Origin: Nitrosopumilus sp.
Lineage (GTDB): Archaea; Thermoproteota; Nitrososphaeria; Nitrososphaerales; Nitrosopumilaceae
Assembly: GCA_965205215.1 (NCBI GenBank)
Contig: OZ242041.1
Span: 2,034,240 to 2,098,239 of the forward strand
DNA: 64,000 bases
Direction of reading: 5' to 3'
Below are positions 4,600-59,594 of this stretch, one piece after another; the first letter of the stretch is position 1, and every line of letters begins with the position of its first letter. A program made the position numbers and the translations under genes. Below the pieces are notes generated by a model, which was given only the letters and a program-made list of their open reading frames with translations, was not told the origin of the DNA and did no database searches.

Positions 4600-5357
4600 G
4601 CGACGGCGGCGGCGGCAGTAGCAGTGGTAGCGGCAACAGAAAAGGCGTCCGCATAGGGGTGCTTTCTATACAGGGCGACGTGGCAGAGAACGTGGCCGCC
4701 ATATCAAGCGCGCTAAAGGCGCCGCGCGGCTTTGAGGACGACGCCGTGCTGCAGGTAAAGACCGCCGGCGAGATAGCAGGGCTGGACGGACTCGTGATTC
4801 CGGGAGGCGAGAGCACCACAATCGGCAGGCTCTCCGCTGCAGGCGGCGTGCTTGACGCCATACGGGAAAGGGTCAACGGCGACGGCATGCCGGTCCTGGG
4901 CATATGCGCGGGACTGATCCTGCTTGCAAGATCAGCCGACGACCGGACGGTCGGAAGGCTCGACGGGCAGCCGCTCCTGGGGGTGCTCGACGTCGAGGTG
5001 CAGCGCAACGCCTTCGGGCGCCAGCGCCAGTCCTTTGAGGCCAAGCTGGACATCAGGCCGCTTGCGATATCAAACTTCAAGGGCGTCTTTATCCGGGCCC
5101 CCGTCGTGTGCGGGACGGGGCCTGACGTGGAGGCGCTCTGCGAGCTGCCGCCTAGCGCGGGCGACGGCGGTGGGGATGGCGAGAATAATGATAGTGGCGA
5201 TACGGCCCCCGATGCCGGCGGCAACAGCCCGCGGCGCAGGATAGTAGCGGTCCGCAAGGGCGACATAATCGGCACGGCGTTCCACCCCGAGCTGTCCGGC
5301 GACCTTGCCGTGCACAAGTACTTTGTGGACGCGGTGCGGCGCAAAAGGCGCGGTTAA
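4596..5357 (+). CDS. pdxT: PLP synthase glutaminase subunit
   Basis: [25 protein letters not shown]; overlaps pdxS. Confidence 0.96.
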
Positions 5358-20528: not shown

Positions 20529-23500
20529 CTACTGGACCGGCGCGCTCCGGACTGTTACGACTACCGTGTCGGTGGCAGTGTCAGTGCCGTCAGAGACTGT
20601 AAGGGTGAGGGTGTAGTTGGTGTCGGCCGAGATGTCCGGCGCCGTGAAGGACGGGGCGGGGGCGTCGGCATTCTTGAGTGGGATGGGCGGCGAGATCGTC
20701 CAGCCGTACGTGATCGAGTCGCCGTCCGGGTCGGAGGATGCGAAGCCGTTGAGGTAGACGATGGCGCCCTCAGAGACGGTCAAGTCTGCCCCCGCGTCGG
20801 CTGTGGGCGGCAGGTTGTTCTCGACTGTTACGACTACCGTGTCGGTGGCAGTGTCAGTGCCGTCAGAGACTGTAAGGGTGAGGGTGTAGTTGGTGTCGGC
20901 CGAGATGTCCGGCGCCGTGAAGGACGGGGCGGGGGCGTCGGCATTCTTGAGGGTGACGGATGGCGAGATCGTCCAGCCGTACGTGATCGAGTCGCCGTCC
21001 GGATCGGAGGATGCGAAGCCGCTGAGGTAGACGGTGGCGCCCTCGCGCACGGTCAGGTCGGCTCCCGCGTCGGCTGTGGGCGCCCGGTTCGTCGGCTGCT
21101 GCTGCTGCTGGGCCGACACGCTCCGGACCGTTACTACCATGGTGTCGGTGTCGGTGTCGGTGCCGTCGGAGACCGTAAGGGTGATGGTGTAGGGGGTGTC
21201 TGACGTGACGGAGGGCGCCGCGAACGACGGGGCCGCGGTGTTGGCGTTCTGGAGGGTTATGCCCTGCGGAGCAGTCCAGCTGTACGACAGGGAATCGCCG
21301 TCGGGGTCGGAGGACGACGAGCCGTTCAGATTCACGGTGGCGCCCTCAGAGACGGTCTGGTCTGCTCCCGCGTCGGCTGTGGGCGGCAGGTTGACGTTCC
21401 GGACCGTTACTATCACCGTGTCGGTGTCGGTGTCGGTGCCGTCGGAGACTGCAAGGGTGATGGTGTAGGGGGTGTCTGACGTGACGGAGGGCGCCGCGAA
21501 CGACGGGGCCGCGGTGTTGGCGTTCTGGAGGGTTATGCCCTGCGGGGCAGTCCAGCTGTACGACAGGGAATCGCCGTCGGGGTCGGAGGACGACGAGCCG
21601 TTCAGATTCACGGTGGCGCCCTCAGAGACGGTCTGGTCTGCTCCCGCGTCGGCTGTGGGCGGCAGGTTGACGTTCCGGACCGTTACTATCATGGTATCGG
21701 TGTCGGTGTCGGTGCCGTCGGAGACTGCAAGGGTGATGGTGTAGGGGGTGTCTGACGCGACTGGGGGCGCCGCGAACGACGGGGCCGCGGTGTTGGCGTT
21801 CTGGAGGGTTATGCCCTGCGGGGCAACCCAGAGGTATGACAGGGTATCGCCGTCCGGGTCGGAGGACGACGAGCCGTCCAAGCTGACGGCGGAACCCTCA
21901 GAGACGGTCTGGTCTGTTCCCGCGTCGGCCGCGGGCGGCCGGTTCAGGTGCGAGGAGGCGTAAATTTCAAGCTGCCGCGTGTTGCCGGTGCCGAACGAAT
22001 CTGCGGACTCGGCCCCGATGTTTATGAGATACTTGTCTTTCGGGGGGGCGTTTGGCTTTATCATCAGGACGTTGTCAGAAGATATGGTAAAGTTTGCGTT
22101 GTCCGGATATGCACCGGTGTCCACAAGCGAGTAGGACGGATTATGGCGGTGCAGTACGGCGTTCTGTGCGGCAATCTCCGCCGCGTACGTGCCGTCCCCG
22201 CCAATGCGCGTGCTGTTGAGCGTAATGTACCAGGGCCCCAGATTTTGACTAAAGGCGCTGGCGTAGTAGAACATGTAGTACATGTCGGCCACGTTTGAGA
22301 CGTCCCAGCCGGAGATGTCGGAGTTGAACTCGTAGGTTATATAGAACATTTCGCTCATGTCGGTTACACTGGAGGTGTCCCAGCCGGAGAGGTCGGCGGC
22401 AATGTTGTAGGCGTGGGAGAACATGCCCCTCATGTCGGTTACGCTGGAGGTGTCCCAGCCGGAGATGTCTCCGTTGAAATCCATGGCGTCCTGGAACATG
22501 CGGCTCATGTCGGTTACGCTGGAGGTGTTCCAGCCGGAGAGGTCGGCGTTGAAATACATGGCGCCGTAGAACATGCCGCTCATGTCGGTTACGCTGGAGG
22601 TGTTCCAGCCGGAGAGGTCGGGGGTGGCACCGGATTCAAAAAACATGTAGCTCATGTCGGTTACGCGCGAGGTGTCCCAGCCGGAGAGGTCGGCGTCGAA
22701 GTAGTAGGCATTGTAGAACATGCCGCTCATGTCGGTTACGCTGGAGGTGTTCCAGCCGGAGAGGTCGCCGTTGAAGTGACTGGAGCGGAACATTTCGCTC
22801 ATGTTGGTCACGCGCGAGGTGTCCCAGCCGGAGAGACAAGGGGACGTGTTCCAGTCACCGCAGAAGCCGCTGATTTCGGAGAACATTCTGTTCATGTCGG
22901 TTACGCTGGAGGTGTCCCAGTCGGAGATGTTTGCACTGAAGCTGTAAGCGCGGAAGAATGTTTCGCCCATGTCGGTTACGCTGGAGGTGTCCCAGTCGGA
23001 GAGGTCGGCGTCGAAGTAAGCGGCACCGCGGAACATGCGGTTCATGTCGGTTACGCTGGAGGTGTCCCAGTCGGAGAGGTCGGCGTCGAAGTTGTGGGCA
23101 TTGTAGAACATGCGGTTCATGTCGGTTACGCTGGAGATGTCCCAGCCGGAGAGGTCGGCGTCGAAGTTGTGGGCGCCGTCGAACATGCCGCTCATGTCGG
23201 TTACGCTGGAGGTGTTCCAGCCGGAGAGGTCGCCGTTGAAATAGTAGGCAGAGCTGAACATCCTCGACAGACTGGACACGCCCGAGAGGTTCGGGCTGTC
23301 GTCCGCGGCGTATCTCACGTTTCTTGCGTCCGCGAATGCAGACTCCATGGACGACCACCGCATGGAGCCCCACTGGTCGATGCTCTTCAGCTTTTCGGCG
23401 TTTGTGACATCCCCGCCCAGAAGTATTCTCGTAAAGTCGCCCGAGATTCGCACGGTATAGGTGCCTGCCCACGCGTACGTGTGCTCCTGGTCGCCGCTCA

Positions 23501-23747
23501 CGCCCAAGCTGGTGTTGCCGTCACCCCAGTCTATGGCGTAGGTACCGGTGGCGCCGCCCACCGGAATTTTTATCGTCCTGTCATCCCAGGTGACGCTCCA
23601 TACGGTGACAAAGTCGTCAGAAGGGGCGGCCGCGGCCGGCACGGCGGCCGGCAGCAACGCAAACGCGGCGCATGCCCCGCCCACCACCAAGACAGCAACT
23701 GACACAATCAATACACGAGCCGCACTCGAGAGTAACGCGCGTGTCAA
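20529..23747 (-). CDS. Large secreted/surface protein: BspA-like DUF285 repeats plus five PKD-like Ig repeats
   Basis: Signal peptide; tandem F(N/D)ADLSGWDTSSVTDMSxMF repeats; PPTADAG.D..V.EG..SSDPDGD repeats. Confidence 0.9.
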   Translation of the reverse strand: MTRALLSSAARVLIVSVAVLVVGGACAAFALLPAAVPAAAAPSDDFVTVWSVTWDDRTIKIPVGGATGTYAIDWGDGNTSLGVSGDQEHTYAWAGTYTVRISGDFTRILLGGDVTNAEKLKSIDQWGSMRWSSMESAFADARNVRYAADDSPNLSGVSSLSRMFSSAYYFNGDLSGWNTSSVTDMSGMFDGAHNFDADLSGWDISSVTDMNRMFYNAHNFDADLSDWDTSSVTDMNRMFRGAAYFDADLSDWDTSSVTDMGETFFRAYSFSANISDWDTSSVTDMNRMFSEISGFCGDWNTSPCLSGWDTSRVTNMSEMFRSSHFNGDLSGWNTSSVTDMSGMFYNAYYFDADLSGWDTSRVTDMSYMFFESGATPDLSGWNTSSVTDMSGMFYGAMYFNADLSGWNTSSVTDMSRMFQDAMDFNGDISGWDTSSVTDMRGMFSHAYNIAADLSGWDTSSVTDMSEMFYITYEFNSDISGWDVSNVADMYYMFYYASAFSQNLGPWYITLNSTRIGGDGTYAAEIAAQNAVLHRHNPSYSLVDTGAYPDNANFTISSDNVLMIKPNAPPKDKYLINIGAESADSFGTGNTRQLEIYASSHLNRPPAADAGTDQTVSEGSAVSLDGSSSSDPDGDTLSYLWVAPQGITLQNANTAAPSFAAPPVASDTPYTITLAVSDGTDTDTDTMIVTVRNVNLPPTADAGADQTVSEGATVNLNGSSSSDPDGDSLSYSWTAPQGITLQNANTAAPSFAAPSVTSDTPYTITLAVSDGTDTDTDTVIVTVRNVNLPPTADAGADQTVSEGATVNLNGSSSSDPDGDSLSYSWTAPQGITLQNANTAAPSFAAPSVTSDTPYTITLTVSDGTDTDTDTMVVTVRSVSAQQQQQPTNRAPTADAGADLTVREGATVYLSGFASSDPDGDSITYGWTISPSVTLKNADAPAPSFTAPDISADTNYTLTLTVSDGTDTATDTVVVTVENNLPPTADAGADLTVSEGAIVYLNGFASSDPDGDSITYGWTISPPIPLKNADAPAPSFTAPDISADTNYTLTLTVSDGTDTATDTVVVTVRSAPVQ
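20550..21940 (-). repeat. Intragenic PKD-domain repeats (three 276-bp and two ~270-bp units)
   Basis: Near-identical DNA units (shadow ORFs recur at 21196, 21472, 21748). Confidence 0.9.
22250..23300 (-). repeat. Intragenic ~75-bp (25-aa) DUF285 repeats
   Basis: Recurring CATGTCGGTTACGCTGGAGGTGTCCCAG, more than 10 copies. Confidence 0.9.
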
Positions 23748-30918: not shown

Positions 30919-31131
30919 CTAGTCCCACTCGTCGAGGGTACCGGACGACTGCCCCTTGCTGGCGGCCCCGGCATAGTCGCTCAGTATGTCCGAGTATGTG
31001 GGATCGTTGTGCGCGACGTACTCTACATAGTCCCCATAACTCATGTCAAACTCGCACGTGCCGCACTTTACCTTGGCAAAGTCCGGTGAGAGTACCGCAT
31101 CCTCCCTGCACTTGGGGCACTTTATCTTCAC
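30919..31131 (-). CDS. Small zinc-ribbon protein
   Basis: KCPKC...KCGTC; GTG start at 31131. Confidence 0.7.
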   Translation of the reverse strand: MKIKCPKCREDAVLSPDFAKVKCGTCEFDMSYGDYVEYVAHNDPTYSDILSDYAGAASKGQSSGTLDEWD

Positions 31132-31180
31132 GCGCGGCCGTAGGTGTCGGCCACTATTATGACTTGTGAGAACCGGTTCC

Positions 31181-32689
31181 GCTTCCAATCCGTGATATGT
31201 CCTGACTGATGCTCCGGCCAATGGACAGGATGCAGCCGGCAGCCACATGGCGGCGCGCCCGTCACATTGGAAACAAGGCATAATAACATGATCACCTTGC
31301 GTGTTACGTGTTGCATGCATACCGCAAGTACCGGGTCGCCATATCGCTGGCGGCCGACCAGGTGCGCCTCATCGACTCGTACCGCGCTGCCCAGCGCCAC
31401 GCGTACAACTGGTCCGTCGGGAGGATCATGTCGGGCGGTGCCGTAAGCGAGTACGGGCTGTACAAGGAGCTGACGGCCAGGCGCCTGGAACAGGAGTGGA
31501 TGCGCGCCGTTCCCGCGTGGATACAGCGTGCGGGCATCCAAGACGCATGCACCGCGCACAAACTGGCAGCGAGGTCCGGCGGCGGCCTCAGGCACCGCAC
31601 GAGGAAACGGCACTCCGCAATCTCCGTGAGGTGCGCGCTCGCGCCGCGCACAGTCGACAGGTACGGCATCATGCTGCCGTCGTTTGGAACTGTCCGCGCG
31701 GCCGTACCCAACGAGGTCATGGAGCACGAACCAAGATCGTACGAGTTCACCAGGACGCGGAGCGGCCGGTACGTGCTGTACGTGTCGTGCCGCGTCGGGA
31801 TGCCGCCGCAGCGGAGCGTGCCCGCGGACGCGACGGTCAAGGGGGTTGACCGCGGCGTCGCGGAGCCCACGGTGGTCGTGACCATGGACCGCGGGGGAAG
31901 TGCAGTCGCAAAGGACTCCTACGACACGGCCGCGCCGTTCAGGGACGGCCGCGCGGAATACCAAGAAATGCAGTCAAGGATGTCCAAGATGAACAGGCAC
32001 TCCAACAGGTTCAGGAGGCTGCACGCGCGGCTCCGCAGGCGCCTGCAGAAGACCGGAAGCCGCCGCCAGTACGCGGAGTGCATCGCGGCCAAGCACGTGT
32101 GCGACGACCATGCACCCGGCGTGATCGTGCTCGAGGACCTCAAGGTATCAAGCATGACCCGCAGGGGGCGCGGCTCCCACAAGAGGGGGCTCAACCGCGA
32201 GATGCGCTTCGTGCGGCACCGCGCCGTCGAGCAGCGCATACGAAACCGCGCCGAGCTCGCGGGCATACAGATCATCACGGTCGACCCCAGGTACACGTCG
32301 CAGGAGTGCGCGAGGTGCGGGCACGTCGACAAGTCCTCGAGGGTGACGAGGGACATGTTCAGGTGCACCAAGTGCAGTTACGTTCAACAGGCCGACGTCA
32401 ACGCGGCCATGGTAATCGGGGGATACGGCCTGCCGCCCACAGACCCCGGTGACACGACGAGAAAATGGCAGGCCACGGGGGCAGGAACGGCCCTCGTAAG
32501 ACGCGAACTGGACGCGCGCCTCAACTGCTTCTCAGAGGCGGTCGGGGGCCCCGCGAGGGGGCACGAGAGCCAAGTGCCGGCGCGTTCCCTTTCCCGCAGC
32601 GGAATGGAGAAAGAACGTCAGAGTGCAGGCGTGGTGTTTGGCCGGGCTGCCGATTACGGCATGCCCAACTAATATCACGGACTGGAAGC
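31181..32689 (+). mobile_element. Non-autonomous TnpB-only element with 18-bp terminal inverted repeats and probable 6-bp TSD
   Basis: GCTTCCAATCCGTGATAT (31181-31198) vs ATATCACGGACTGGAAGC (32672-32689), 17/18 reverse-complement; flanks GGTTCC (31175-31180) and AGTTCC (32690-32695). Confidence 0.75.
31308..32672 (+). CDS. tnpB: TnpB-family RNA-guided endonuclease
   Basis: RuvC-I GVDRG, RuvC-II VLEDL, VDPRYTSQECARCG..FRCTKC zinc finger, RuvC-III QADVNAA. Confidence 0.93.
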   Translation: MLHAYRKYRVAISLAADQVRLIDSYRAAQRHAYNWSVGRIMSGGAVSEYGLYKELTARRLEQEWMRAVPAWIQRAGIQDACTAHKLAARSGGGLRHRTRKRHSAISVRCALAPRTVDRYGIMLPSFGTVRAAVPNEVMEHEPRSYEFTRTRSGRYVLYVSCRVGMPPQRSVPADATVKGVDRGVAEPTVVVTMDRGGSAVAKDSYDTAAPFRDGRAEYQEMQSRMSKMNRHSNRFRRLHARLRRRLQKTGSRRQYAECIAAKHVCDDHAPGVIVLEDLKVSSMTRRGRGSHKRGLNREMRFVRHRAVEQRIRNRAELAGIQIITVDPRYTSQECARCGHVDKSSRVTRDMFRCTKCSYVQQADVNAAMVIGGYGLPPTDPGDTTRKWQATGAGTALVRRELDARLNCFSEAVGGPARGHESQVPARSLSRSGMEKERQSAGVVFGRAADYGMPN

Positions 32690-32734
32690 AGTTCCTCAAC
32701 AAGAGATAAAAGAGACGTCCGGAGACGGTGCGCC

Positions 32735-33025
32735 ATGGGGCGGCAGTGCACCAAGTGCAAGCTACAGATACAGGACTCCGAGGTTCTGGATATGGGGGCC
32801 GAGAAGTATCCCACGTGCAACAAGTGCTGGGCCGAGTGGAAAGAGTACCGCGTCATGGTCATGAACGAGATGCGGCTTGACATGTCCATGCCGGATCACC
32901 GCAAGATGCTCCGCAAGAACGAAAAGATATTCGTCGGCGTCATGTCTCCTGACGGCGATGTCATAGATTTCACAAACGAGGACAACCGGCGCCCAGACGA
33001 TCCCCCTCCCGGTTCTCAGGCCTAG
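32735..33025 (+). CDS. YggX-like Fe(II)-trafficking/Fe-S protection protein
   Basis: C..W.EW......MNE.RLDM....RK.L pattern. Confidence 0.7.
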   Translation: MGRQCTKCKLQIQDSEVLDMGAEKYPTCNKCWAEWKEYRVMVMNEMRLDMSMPDHRKMLRKNEKIFVGVMSPDGDVIDFTNEDNRRPDDPPPGSQA

Positions 33026-57494: not shown

Positions 57495-59594
57495 TTACGC
57501 TTTTGCCCGCTGGTATCTGTCCAAATCCGCCTTTGCCACCACGTTCTGGTATTGCCTGATGCGCTCGGCCATGAGCCTGTAGAGCGACCTGAACCTGTCC
57601 CGGGTCTTGTCGGACAGAAAGCTCGCCTCATCAAGAGTGATCTTTTCGCAGATGTACCTTGTGATCTCCTCGTTGCTGAACTCCCCCCATTCGTCATCGG
57701 CATGATCCTGCCATATGGCGGCAAGCTTGGCAAGTATGCCCTTGTGGTCCTGCTTCTCGTCCAGATCCCCCAGCCCTATGCTGGTGTATCCCTCGCGCCT
57801 GAGCTTTATCTCGTAGGTCTGGTTTACCGGGTGCAGATAGTCCTCCGGCAAGATGTAATCCTCTATGGACTCTAGCTTTTTGCCTTCAAGCTCGTAGGAT
57901 ATGGTCTGCACCGGCAGAAAGCCGTTTGCCGTGAGCTGGGCCGATATCTGCCTTGATTCGTCCGTATTGTCAAGCAGTATGAACGTCTTGTACCCGTGGT
58001 TCCTGTAGAATATGGCAAGCGGCAGGACCGAGTTCTTGCTGTATGCGGCCACCACGTTGAGCGGGTTCATCGATATGTTGGGATCCTGCAGAAACTTGTC
58101 AAAGGCGTTGAGGTACATGGAGTCGGACATGGTCTCTACGATTATGATGGGCCTCGAGTTTGTCCCGATCTCCCTGTCGACCACCGACTCCACCTGGCCC
58201 CGGGACAGCCCGTACAGGATTGGCGTCAGGGTCTTGTCGTCGGCGTTCCAATAGTCGTAGAATATGCGGCTTAGGTGCCTCCGTTTGTCAAGCTCGACTA
58301 CCAGCAGGTTCCCCGGGGTATAGTCAAATATCATAAACGGCGAGTGCGTGGCGTAGAGCACCTGGTTTGATCCGGCGAGGCTCCTTAGCAGGTCCGATAT
58401 GCCCATCTGCTGCGTCGGGTGCAGGTTCCTTGCAGGCTCGTCGAGCAGCAGTATGGCCTCCTTTAGTTCCGCCCTCTGGGTCTCGGCCGCAAAGTTTACG
58501 ATGAACGAGAACGTCCACTTGAAGCCCTCCGCCCGGCGACTCAGCAGCCCCGTGTTTGTCACGTTCCCGTCCCTGTGCACGTCGGATATCACCACGCTCA
58601 TGATGTTGCCCGGGTTGTACCTCAGCTCTATCCGTATGGGATCGCCCTTCCAGGCCGGGTTGAGCCTGGACGTGAGCTTGTTTGACGCGGCGTTGAGCAG
58701 CTTGATGCACTTTGAGGGGCTGTTCTTCACCTCCTCCAGCTCGTCCATGTCGAGCTCTGCCAGATAGAAGAGGTTTCTCACGGTCTCGGCCTTGTCGAAC
58801 TCCTCCACGTACTCTATCGACCGGCCAGGTGTAGTGCCCCTCTCCTCCCTGACGTATTCGCTGAGGTTTATGTTGCCAAAGATCTTTTTGTAGTCCGAAA
58901 AGTAGACGAACCTCGGGTGCAGGTTGGAGCCTACAAAGTTGTCGAGCGCGACCCTCTCGCTCTCCCCGCTCAGCAGGTTGTCGAACCTGTTCTCAGGGCT
59001 CTCGTAGATCTTCTCCCACTCGGCCACGACCTCCGGCTCCTGTATGGCTATGACGTGGAACCTGTTGCTGAACTCGGCCATCTGGCTGTCAAAGGACTCC
59101 TGCGTCTCCGGAATGGGGCCCTCAAAGAACGACGTGTCCACCTGTATCCGGAGGTGGTTTGGAATGGTGTCTGTGAACGAGATTACCCTCTTTGCAAAGT
59201 TCTCCCAGGAGTTGAGGTCCCTGCTGCGCCCCTCGTCGACGGGCATGTTGTCAAACTCGTACTGGACTCCCGGGCTCCGGTTTGTCCTGTACAGCGTCAT
59301 GCGCCTGATCTCCGGCAGCCCCGGAAAGCGCTCCCTTATCATCTCAATCTCGTTGGGGTTGAGCTCGAACTGCCCCTCCGCAAGCCTTATCTCGCTCTTG
59401 AGCTCCTCGTCCATCTCGTCGCACAAGTCGAGCTCCGAGACCTGCTCGTCCCGGTTCAGGAGGGTGAGGGCCTGGAGTATGGTCGTCTTGCCGCTCTCGT
59501 TCCTGCCCACGAACGCGGCCAGGTCGCCTACCGTAATCTCCCCCGAATCGTGTATGCAACGGTATGCCCTGACTCTAAACTTTCTAAGCCTCAT
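57495..59594 (-). CDS. OLD-like ABC ATPase with probable C-terminal TOPRIM-like domain
   Basis: GRNESGKT Walker A, LLLDEP, THSPF, IIVETMSD..IEDY. Confidence 0.8.
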   Translation of the reverse strand: MRLRKFRVRAYRCIHDSGEITVGDLAAFVGRNESGKTTILQALTLLNRDEQVSELDLCDEMDEELKSEIRLAEGQFELNPNEIEMIRERFPGLPEIRRMTLYRTNRSPGVQYEFDNMPVDEGRSRDLNSWENFAKRVISFTDTIPNHLRIQVDTSFFEGPIPETQESFDSQMAEFSNRFHVIAIQEPEVVAEWEKIYESPENRFDNLLSGESERVALDNFVGSNLHPRFVYFSDYKKIFGNINLSEYVREERGTTPGRSIEYVEEFDKAETVRNLFYLAELDMDELEEVKNSPSKCIKLLNAASNKLTSRLNPAWKGDPIRIELRYNPGNIMSVVISDVHRDGNVTNTGLLSRRAEGFKWTFSFIVNFAAETQRAELKEAILLLDEPARNLHPTQQMGISDLLRSLAGSNQVLYATHSPFMIFDYTPGNLLVVELDKRRHLSRIFYDYWNADDKTLTPILYGLSRGQVESVVDREIGTNSRPIIIVETMSDSMYLNAFDKFLQDPNISMNPLNVVAAYSKNSVLPLAIFYRNHGYKTFILLDNTDESRQISAQLTANGFLPVQTISYELEGKKLESIEDYILPEDYLHPVNQTYEIKLRREGYTSIGLGDLDEKQDHKGILAKLAAIWQDHADDEWGEFSNEEITRYICEKITLDEASFLSDKTRDRFRSLYRLMAERIRQYQNVVAKADLDRYQRAKA

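Follow-up and report, generated by a model that had tools for sequence, protein, structure and literature searches.

A TnpB gene inside an archaeal inverted-repeat transposon of probable IS1595 type in Nitrosopumilus

The tnpB gene that lies between terminal inverted repeats (TIRs) in a 64,000-nt stretch of a Nitrosopumilus sp. genome (hereafter the window) raises the question of what kind of mobile element carries it and which enzyme moves that element. TnpB is usually explained by its partnership with scarless transposases of the single-strand (Y1) or serine type, and according to reviews, cut-and-paste DDE elements gain little from TnpB. In eukaryotes, Fanzor reportedly occurs in TIR transposons, as Bao and Jurka are said to have described in 2013. 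The host of the window is a sponge-associated ammonia-oxidizing archaeon, whose genome (G000) consists of one contig of 2,098,239 bp and is 95% complete. The window element is designated copy A, and coordinates are window positions on the plus strand unless a genome code is given. The evidence makes it probable that copy A is a non-autonomous transposon of the IS1595 type (DDE transposase, TIRs, 8-bp target duplication), whose only gene, for an intact TnpB, carries an omega-RNA-like scaffold at the 3′ end.

Positions 31175–32695 are a discrete mobile unit of 1,521 bp, bounded by inverted repeats of about 24 bp, with tnpB as its sole gene. The initial annotation had described 18-bp inverted repeats with one mismatch and a stop codon adjoining the right one. 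Both statements were accurate, as the 18-mers at 31181–31198 and 32672–32689 matched at 17 of 18 positions, and the TAA stop codon (32670–32672) shared 1 nt with the right repeat. In a genome-wide search of G000 with up to 3 mismatches, the 18-mer was found only as three inverted pairs, belonging to copy A, a second copy (B), and a 169-bp miniature inverted-repeat transposable element (MITE), so that the repeat is not a chance occurrence. Copy B (G000:C1:1592654-1594174) was 98.6% identical to copy A, and the homology between them began exactly at 31175 and continued through 32695, to about 32703. The hexamers outside the 18-mers, GGTTCC (31175–31180) and AGTTCC (32690–32695), had been taken for a 6-bp target duplication, a claim that had to be abandoned. 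Since the same hexamers are common to copies A and B and are absent from the empty copy-B site in a sister genome (G201), they are part of the element and represent the outer end of a TIR of about 24 bp. The left TIR accordingly spans 31175–31198, a boundary given by the start of the copy B homology, the G201 empty site, and the TIR alignment, and the right TIR spans 32672–32695. The left TIR is separated from the tnpB start by a leader of 109 nt (31199–31307), which is conserved in copy B and presumably contains a promoter.

The open reading frame (ORF; 31308–32672) encodes 454 amino acids and was confirmed as an intact TnpB, with a match to the Pfam family Cas12f1-like_TNB (3.9e-19) and a weak one to OrfB_IS605. 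The best PDB matches by phmmer were Cas12f/TnpB chains (E 2e-14). The RuvC residues D181 (GVDRG), E276 (VLEDL), and D363 (QADVNAA), as well as C334, C337, C353, and C356 of the CxxC..CxxC zinc finger, were invariant in an alignment of the window TnpB with seven relatives, and the 454-aa frame with all catalytic residues was retained in three copies. The genome contains four TnpB genes of the window clade, in copies A to D. Copy C (55% protein identity) is bounded by a separate TIR and by TAAAAAGA as a perfect duplication, and the repeat beside copy D, which also has a TIR, matches at 7/9 positions in shifted register. The 169-bp MITE (G000:C1:752825-752993; minus strand, about 4826-4994 of locus L007) has only the TIRs of about 24 bp in common with the window element, its tips being GGTACC/AGTACC. 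It lacks an 8-bp duplication and lies inside a truncated IS3-type helix-turn-helix OrfA remnant (L007 4579-5208). A 5-bp duplication GTWCC, which this MITE had suggested, was rejected because the bases are those of the palindromic outer TIR.

The target duplication was read from copy B, which bears TCGCCAAG on either side. In G201, the flanks of copy B are contiguous, their matches have 8 bp in common, and the octamer occurs once, in the sequence ..AAAATTG TCGCCAAG CAAGG.. at that site. The single octamer at the empty site and the two around copy B therefore indicate a precise insertion that duplicated 8 bp. We then considered 32 TnpB-only elements, oriented by TnpB, from G000, G201, one further metagenome-assembled genome, and three genomes of the sister genus. 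Perfect 8-bp duplications were present in 24 of them, four had a duplication with one mismatch, and four had none (L086, L019, copy D, and the G201 ortholog of copy A); the TIRs measured 20–25 bp across the set. G201 also contains a derivative of 568 bp with an internal deletion, and the duplication on its two sides is TGCAATGA. Thus, the empty locus expected in a sister genome was found, and the expected further copies with the same ends exist in the form of copy B, the MITE, and the 568-bp derivative, the duplications around copy B and the derivative being of 8 bp and not 6 bp. The element was also found in sponge and marine metagenome runs, and judging from metagenome contigs, occupancy of the A and B sites is polymorphic between G000, G201, and the metagenome populations.

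A candidate for the moving enzyme was found in the sister genus. In the genome G100, the tip GGGAATTATAT occurred 30 times in forward and 30 times in reverse orientation, compared with 0 occurrences for the reversed control. Most of these pairs were 1.42–1.48 kb apart and held TnpB only. Two longer pairs, L038 and L039, encode a 319-aa protein with Zn_ribbon_IS1595 and DDE_Tnp_IS1595 domains (1e-40), share their first 13 nt with the co-resident TnpB elements, and are flanked by perfect 8-bp duplications. For one IS1595 subgroup, the tip consensus is 'ggnnatTAT', as given for ISNwi1. In addition, composites of transposase and TnpB moved as one unit. In composite L030 (G065), 6 nt separate a complete TnpB element from a complete IS1595 element, and a single GGGTCTAG duplication encloses the two together, and composite L037 (G145) holds TnpB and an IS1595 transposase inside one outer TIR pair flanked by CCGGTATC. 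The outer ends of the composites are one TnpB-element TIR and one IS1595 TIR. In a sample of 201 genomes of the family, the TnpB clade was present in 9 and PF12762 matched in 26 (a count that includes G092). All eight other TnpB-clade genomes also match PF12762, G110 weakly (1.7e-9), these genomes being kin and not independent cases. IS1595-family elements make 8-bp direct repeats, as stated in a text passage of PMC12561309. An IS1595-family transposase, supplied in trans, would thus bind the TIRs and move the window element. The earlier proposal of a non-autonomous, DDE-type TIR transposon that carries TnpB and would be mobilized in trans is upheld by the empty site, the 24 of 32 duplications, the IS1595 tips, the composites, and the lack of a Y1 or serine TnpA in the host genome. 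The accompanying expectation of a DDE transposase with the same TIRs was borne out for the sister-genus clade, with its 13-nt tips, and not for tips of the GGTTCC type.

Other features of the IS1595 loci were recorded alongside. A fusion of an N6/N4 DNA methylase with an HNH nuclease is present as a passenger in L038 (579-3415) and in L039 (548-3237), where it is frameshifted. L040, in which two tips of G100 lie 6.3 kb apart, was dropped since it did not resemble one element. Four loci in G135 and G065 (L097, L098, L103, and L104) belong to a second IS1595 subgroup with CGCTCAT.. tips and perfect 8-bp duplications, in which no TnpB cargo was seen. A 318-bp MITE in G065 (L041 244-561) has GGGAATTATATAC tips and the flanks CATCGTAC / CACAGTAC (6/8).

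The last ~225 nt of the element are predicted from covariation to form an RNA structure, in which the helix next to the guide would use the tip of the right TIR. This omega-RNA-like region (32470–32695) begins within the 3′ part of the ORF and stops at the tip of the element. The RNAalifold consensus for the last 210–230 nt of 16 elements contained 24 pairs, 12 of which showed compensatory changes. Paired cells amounted to 95.8%, compared with 86.8 +/- 0.9 in shuffles (0/500), and 12 pairs were changed on both sides, compared with 6.4 in shuffles. When the partners were slid by 1–3 columns, pairing fell to 28–50% and compensatory pairs to 1–4. Helix 2 is a long-range, pseudoknot-like helix, whose upstream arm GGAAC (32484–32488) pairs with the last 5 nt of the right TIR, GTTCC (32691–32695). 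Its two arms covary (C-G versus U-A), as GTTCC ends occur with GGAAC upstream in 4 sequences and ATTCC ends with GGAAT in 11, and in L048, GGTTGG upstream pairs with a CCAACC end. Helices 6 and 7 are two adjacent covarying hairpins (32549–32577), namely CCC..GGG at 32549–32560 and GCAC-GAGAGCCAA-GTGC at 32561–32577. The RNA helices are intact in copy A, and a metatranscriptome contig spans 32382–32729, thereby crossing the right tip. No Rfam match was obtained in positions 31000–32900 (E <= 1). The left tips of the A clade have drifted (GGTTCC, GGCTTT, GGTGCT), whereas the right tip remains complementary to the internal motif, a pattern that fits a double constraint on the right tip. A stand-alone fragment of ~70 nt (G000:C1:1751757-1751809; L005), which is 90–92% identical to 32560–32619 in the region of the covarying hairpins, has no TIRs or tnpB nearby and recurred in run X2 as a piece of contig on its own.

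Because the helix between GGAAC and the last five bases would place the end of the scaffold at the TIR tip, the guide would consist of the duplication and the flank. The 8-bp duplication is variable in sequence and consequently should belong to the guide and not to the scaffold. For copy A, the flank that would template the putative guide is TCAACAAGAGATAAAAGAGA (32696–32715), positioned by the scaffold end at 32695 and with an assumed length. In TnpB orientation, the base just 5′ of the left duplication was G in 20 of the 28 elements with a duplication, compared with C as the mirror base after the right duplication in 5 of 28 (Fisher p = 1.2e-4). Among nine IS1595-only elements, G was found at the same position on 3 of 18 flank sides (p = 6.6e-4). 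For the IS1595 control set, 20 loci were fetched, of which the 7 with a clean TIR and a perfect duplication were used and 13 were left out (3 without a TIR call and 10 with at least 3 mismatches). ATNG was read at six of the seven independent insertions of one G100 subfamily, although its left and right TIRs do not differ over 24 nt, and the flank tetramers of the A clade were ATTG, GCTG, CATG, GGTG, GAGG, and ATGA. This orientation-specific motif (~NTG/ATNG) just 5′ of the duplication is a candidate target-adjacent motif (TAM). At copy A, the 4 nt 5′ of the would-be, decayed left duplication are CTTG (31163–31166), which fits NNTG / ATNG and may be the corresponding motif of this copy.

These features suggest how TnpB might act in such a transposon. 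TnpB would load an RNA reading through the right tip, with the adjacent 8-bp duplication and the flank as its guide, and would recognize a TAM (about NTG/ATNG) just 5′ of the duplication in the unoccupied allele, where the TAM would be followed directly by the duplication and right flank as the guide target. At the occupied right junction, the preceding bases are ..TTCC(C). Cutting of empty sites by TnpB would lead to re-copying of the element, and insertions beside a TAM would be retained. We therefore put forward only tentatively, as possible and not as probable, that TnpB-guided homing operates inside a DDE transposon of the TIR and target-duplication type and influences at which sites copies of it survive. 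In this reading, the guide would begin with the variable duplication, the TAM would lie immediately 5′ of it in the empty allele, the surviving insertions would be those that landed beside a TAM (ATNG/NTG) in the right orientation, and the right TIR tip would serve both as a transposase site and as an arm of the RNA helix.

Other explanations of the locus have to be weighed against an IS1595-type transposon. If the element were an ordinary solo-TnpB member of the IS200/IS605 family (IS1341 group), the inverted repeat would be due to chance or to a remnant of a subterminal hairpin, the left GTTCC would be the TnpA target and TAM, and AGTTCC would be the right-end cleavage site. A fixed target and a fixed right end do predict the left GGTTCC and the right AGTTCC of both near-identical copies, and AGTTCC or AATTCC ends are indeed conserved in divergent copies. 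However, this reading is refuted by the empty copy-B site in G201, which lacks GGTTCC and places the 8-bp duplication outside the hexamer. The initial annotation had named different boundaries in other copies, subterminal hairpins of the IS200/IS605 type, and a lack of duplications as signs of such an element; instead, TIRs of 20–25 bp were present throughout the clade and perfect duplications in 24 of 32 relatives. Genome-wide profile searches of G000 also returned no match to the Y1 transposase (PF01797) or to the serine recombinase (PF00239). An IS200/IS605 origin is therefore extremely improbable. It would also be conceivable that the TnpB-only element moves without an IS1595 transposase, being excised and inserted by TnpB itself, whose RuvC fold is RNase-H-like, or by an unrecognized host or viral protein. 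G000 and G201 are single-contig genomes without a detectable IS1595, Y1, or serine transposase, and nonetheless have lineage-specific insertions, copy B in the former and the 568-bp derivative in the latter, with occupancy that differs between metagenome populations. An old polymorphism that recombination has since sorted could nevertheless account for this, as could loss of the transposase. Furthermore, the 8-bp duplications and tips match those of IS1595 elements, the composites use one TIR of each kind as outer ends, MITEs and the deletion derivative have the same ends without TnpB, and IS200/IS605 transposition does not require TnpB, according to a quotation in PMC13565253. Movement independent of IS1595 is accordingly very unlikely.

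Several observations weigh against an IS1595-type transposon with a working TnpB and must be set beside the evidence in its favor. No IS1595 transposase was found in G000, where PF12762 had no match and five IS1595 transposases used in tblastn gave a best E of 0.28, the sister genome G201 has no PF12762 match, and the partner search in G243 returned only a truncated 187-aa DDE fragment beside a methylase fragment, with no clear TIR. A cognate partner with GGTTCC-type tips was thus not found in G000, G201, or G243, and the tip identity with IS1595 elements was seen in the sister-genus clade, with 36–39% protein identity to the window TnpB, and not in the window subfamily. Copy A itself has no recognizable 8-bp duplication. 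Its left flank octamer TGAGAACC (31167–31174), possibly a decayed copy of the right-flank octamer TCAACAAG, matches the latter at 3/8 positions (5/8 in G243), and the ortholog at the same site in G201 likewise lacks a duplication. Synonymous and non-synonymous changes in tnpB were 2 and 8 between copies A and B and 6 and 19 between copy A and its G201 ortholog, small numbers in both cases, and 13/9 and 6/2 in two flanking genes; purA was excluded from this control owing to a gapped alignment. Recent tnpB substitutions (31308–32669) were spread evenly over the codon positions (3/4/3 relative to copy B and 8/11/7 relative to L043), while those in the flanking genes were concentrated at third positions. 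The substitution counts give no sign of current purifying selection, and the recent TnpB changes look neutral. The evidence for transcription consists of contigs from one metatranscriptome and may reflect DNA carry-over, and the flank motif could reflect an orientation bias of the transposase.

With no transposase detected, no duplication at copy A, and near-neutral changes in TnpB, copy A is probably stranded without a transposase. A stronger version would make copy A a decaying relic that is immobile, with a TnpB and RNA that no longer function in this lineage and an ORF that is intact only through lack of time. The missing partner and duplication, the roughly neutral substitution ratio, and an insertion held in common with G201 at the same site all agree with such a relic. 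By contrast, three copies keep the 454-aa frame with every catalytic residue, the RNA helices of copy A are intact, and metatranscriptome contigs extend over the gene and across the right junction. We regard the relic as plausible, with less than an even chance of being correct; moreover, it concerns present activity and not the identity of the element, so that the IS1595-type assignment is a separate matter.

The site of copy A holds different occupants in different genomes. In G243 (contig C89), a different family member occupies the window site with identical boundaries, its core being ~69% identical and its TIR starting with GGTACTGCTGCG. Contigs of two metagenome runs (X7 and X5) bridge the site with 170–178 other nucleotides in place of the element, an occupant close to the 169-bp MITE in length. 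In a distant species (G214), there is an empty intergenic region of matching length, with the right-flank sequence in single copy. One hypothesis for this turnover at an exact site is replacement after a break at the guided site, templated by another family member.

The other genes of the window represent archaeal housekeeping functions, e.g., topoisomerase VI, RtcB, and RIO1. As annotated initially, no transposase was found in the window, which was scanned for 41 of its 56 ORFs of at least 230 aa. On the minus strand, positions 20532–23747 encode a probable large surface protein of 1,072 aa, in which PKD/Ig domains accompany five DUF285 repeats, and positions 57498–59594 encode a 699-aa AAA_15/AAA_21 ATPase with AbiEii/OLD-like family names, which is possibly defense-related. 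Elsewhere in the genome (G000:C1:1936628-1942517), 16-nt blastn matches at a spacing of 276 or 552 bp suggest a long tandem repeat array.

The window element combines traits of several known systems. IS200/IS605 and IS607 elements are described as having neither TIRs nor duplications in text passages of PMC13565253 and PMC3119063. Compared with the IS1341 group of IS200/IS605, the window element has a TIR of ~24 bp (20–25 bp in relatives) instead of subterminal hairpins, and its family duplicates 8 bp on insertion instead of inserting without duplication 3′ of a fixed 4–5-nt motif. No Y1 HUH TnpA was matched in G000, and the TAM of the window element cannot be the fixed target motif of its transposase. 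It nonetheless resembles solo-TnpB elements of this group, such as the ISDra2-type OMEGA system, in its D-E-D RuvC residues and zinc finger and in a guide RNA scaffold that shares sequence with the 3′ end of the gene and stops at the element boundary. Pairing of the five guide-adjacent nucleotides with an upstream segment as a pseudoknot is likewise described for the ISDra2 and ISXfa1 RNAs in a passage of PMC10711439. IS607 elements differ from the window family, which has a TIR and a duplication, and a serine recombinase was not matched in G000. The window element resembles the IS1595 family in TIRs whose first bases are GG and, at the level of its own family, in direct repeats of 8 bp. The autonomous relatives in the sister genus encode a transposase with a zinc ribbon and an ISXO2-like DDE domain and may carry passengers (methyltransferase-HNH in L038 and L039), and forms with passenger genes are included in the family (Siguier et al., 2009, cited in a passage of PMC12561309). 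Unlike these, the window element has no transposase, carries TnpB and its RNA as the only cargo, and has a right tip that would also be constrained by RNA pairing.

DDE-linked TnpBs with inverted repeats have been known since 2023, so the uniqueness implied initially was overstated. Altae-Tran et al. (2023, PNAS), in the text passages considered of PMC10691335, described six DDE-associated TnpB branches (DDE-1 to DDE-6) with inverted terminal repeats, as well as solo TnpBs that have the ends of transposase-bearing elements and were proposed to be moved in trans. Like these branches, the window element is a prokaryotic TnpB in an inverted-repeat element, with the 3′ end of TnpB within 250 bp of the transposon end. 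The same passages name only IS630 (DDE-6) as a family, and those of Kojima (2026; PMC13565253) give ISL2, IS630, and IS1031 as the DDE partners of TnpB. IS1595 and Nitrosopumilaceae are absent from the text passages of both papers, a comparison that leaves figure 4 and the supplements outside, where overlap is possible. A literature search returned no report of TnpB with IS1595 or of TnpB in Nitrosopumilaceae. In the literature text covered, the link to the IS1595 family is thus not described.

A further parallel is found in eukaryotes. Fanzor1 and Fanzor2* are TnpB-family nucleases encoded by non-autonomous elements of the cut-and-paste kind that have TIRs and duplicate their targets, and TIR sequence forms part of the Fanzor guide RNA scaffold, according to text passages of PMC10711439 (NAR, 2023). 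The window system differs in its archaeal host, its TnpB-sized protein, and its pseudoknot-like helix, which appears to be kept and which the same source reports as lost in Fanzor1. The window system would be a prokaryotic counterpart of the Fanzor situation. It predicts a TAM of roughly ATNG/NTG and a guide made up of the duplication and flank. Within one archaeal DDE family, natural insertions can be compared by the dozen, together with empty sites, MITEs, deletion derivatives, and composites of transposase and TnpB. Such natural material may reveal the rules at the sequence level, namely the starting point of the guide, the way in which a TAM can exist without a sequence-specific transposase, and the coexistence of an RNA scaffold with a transposase-binding tip.

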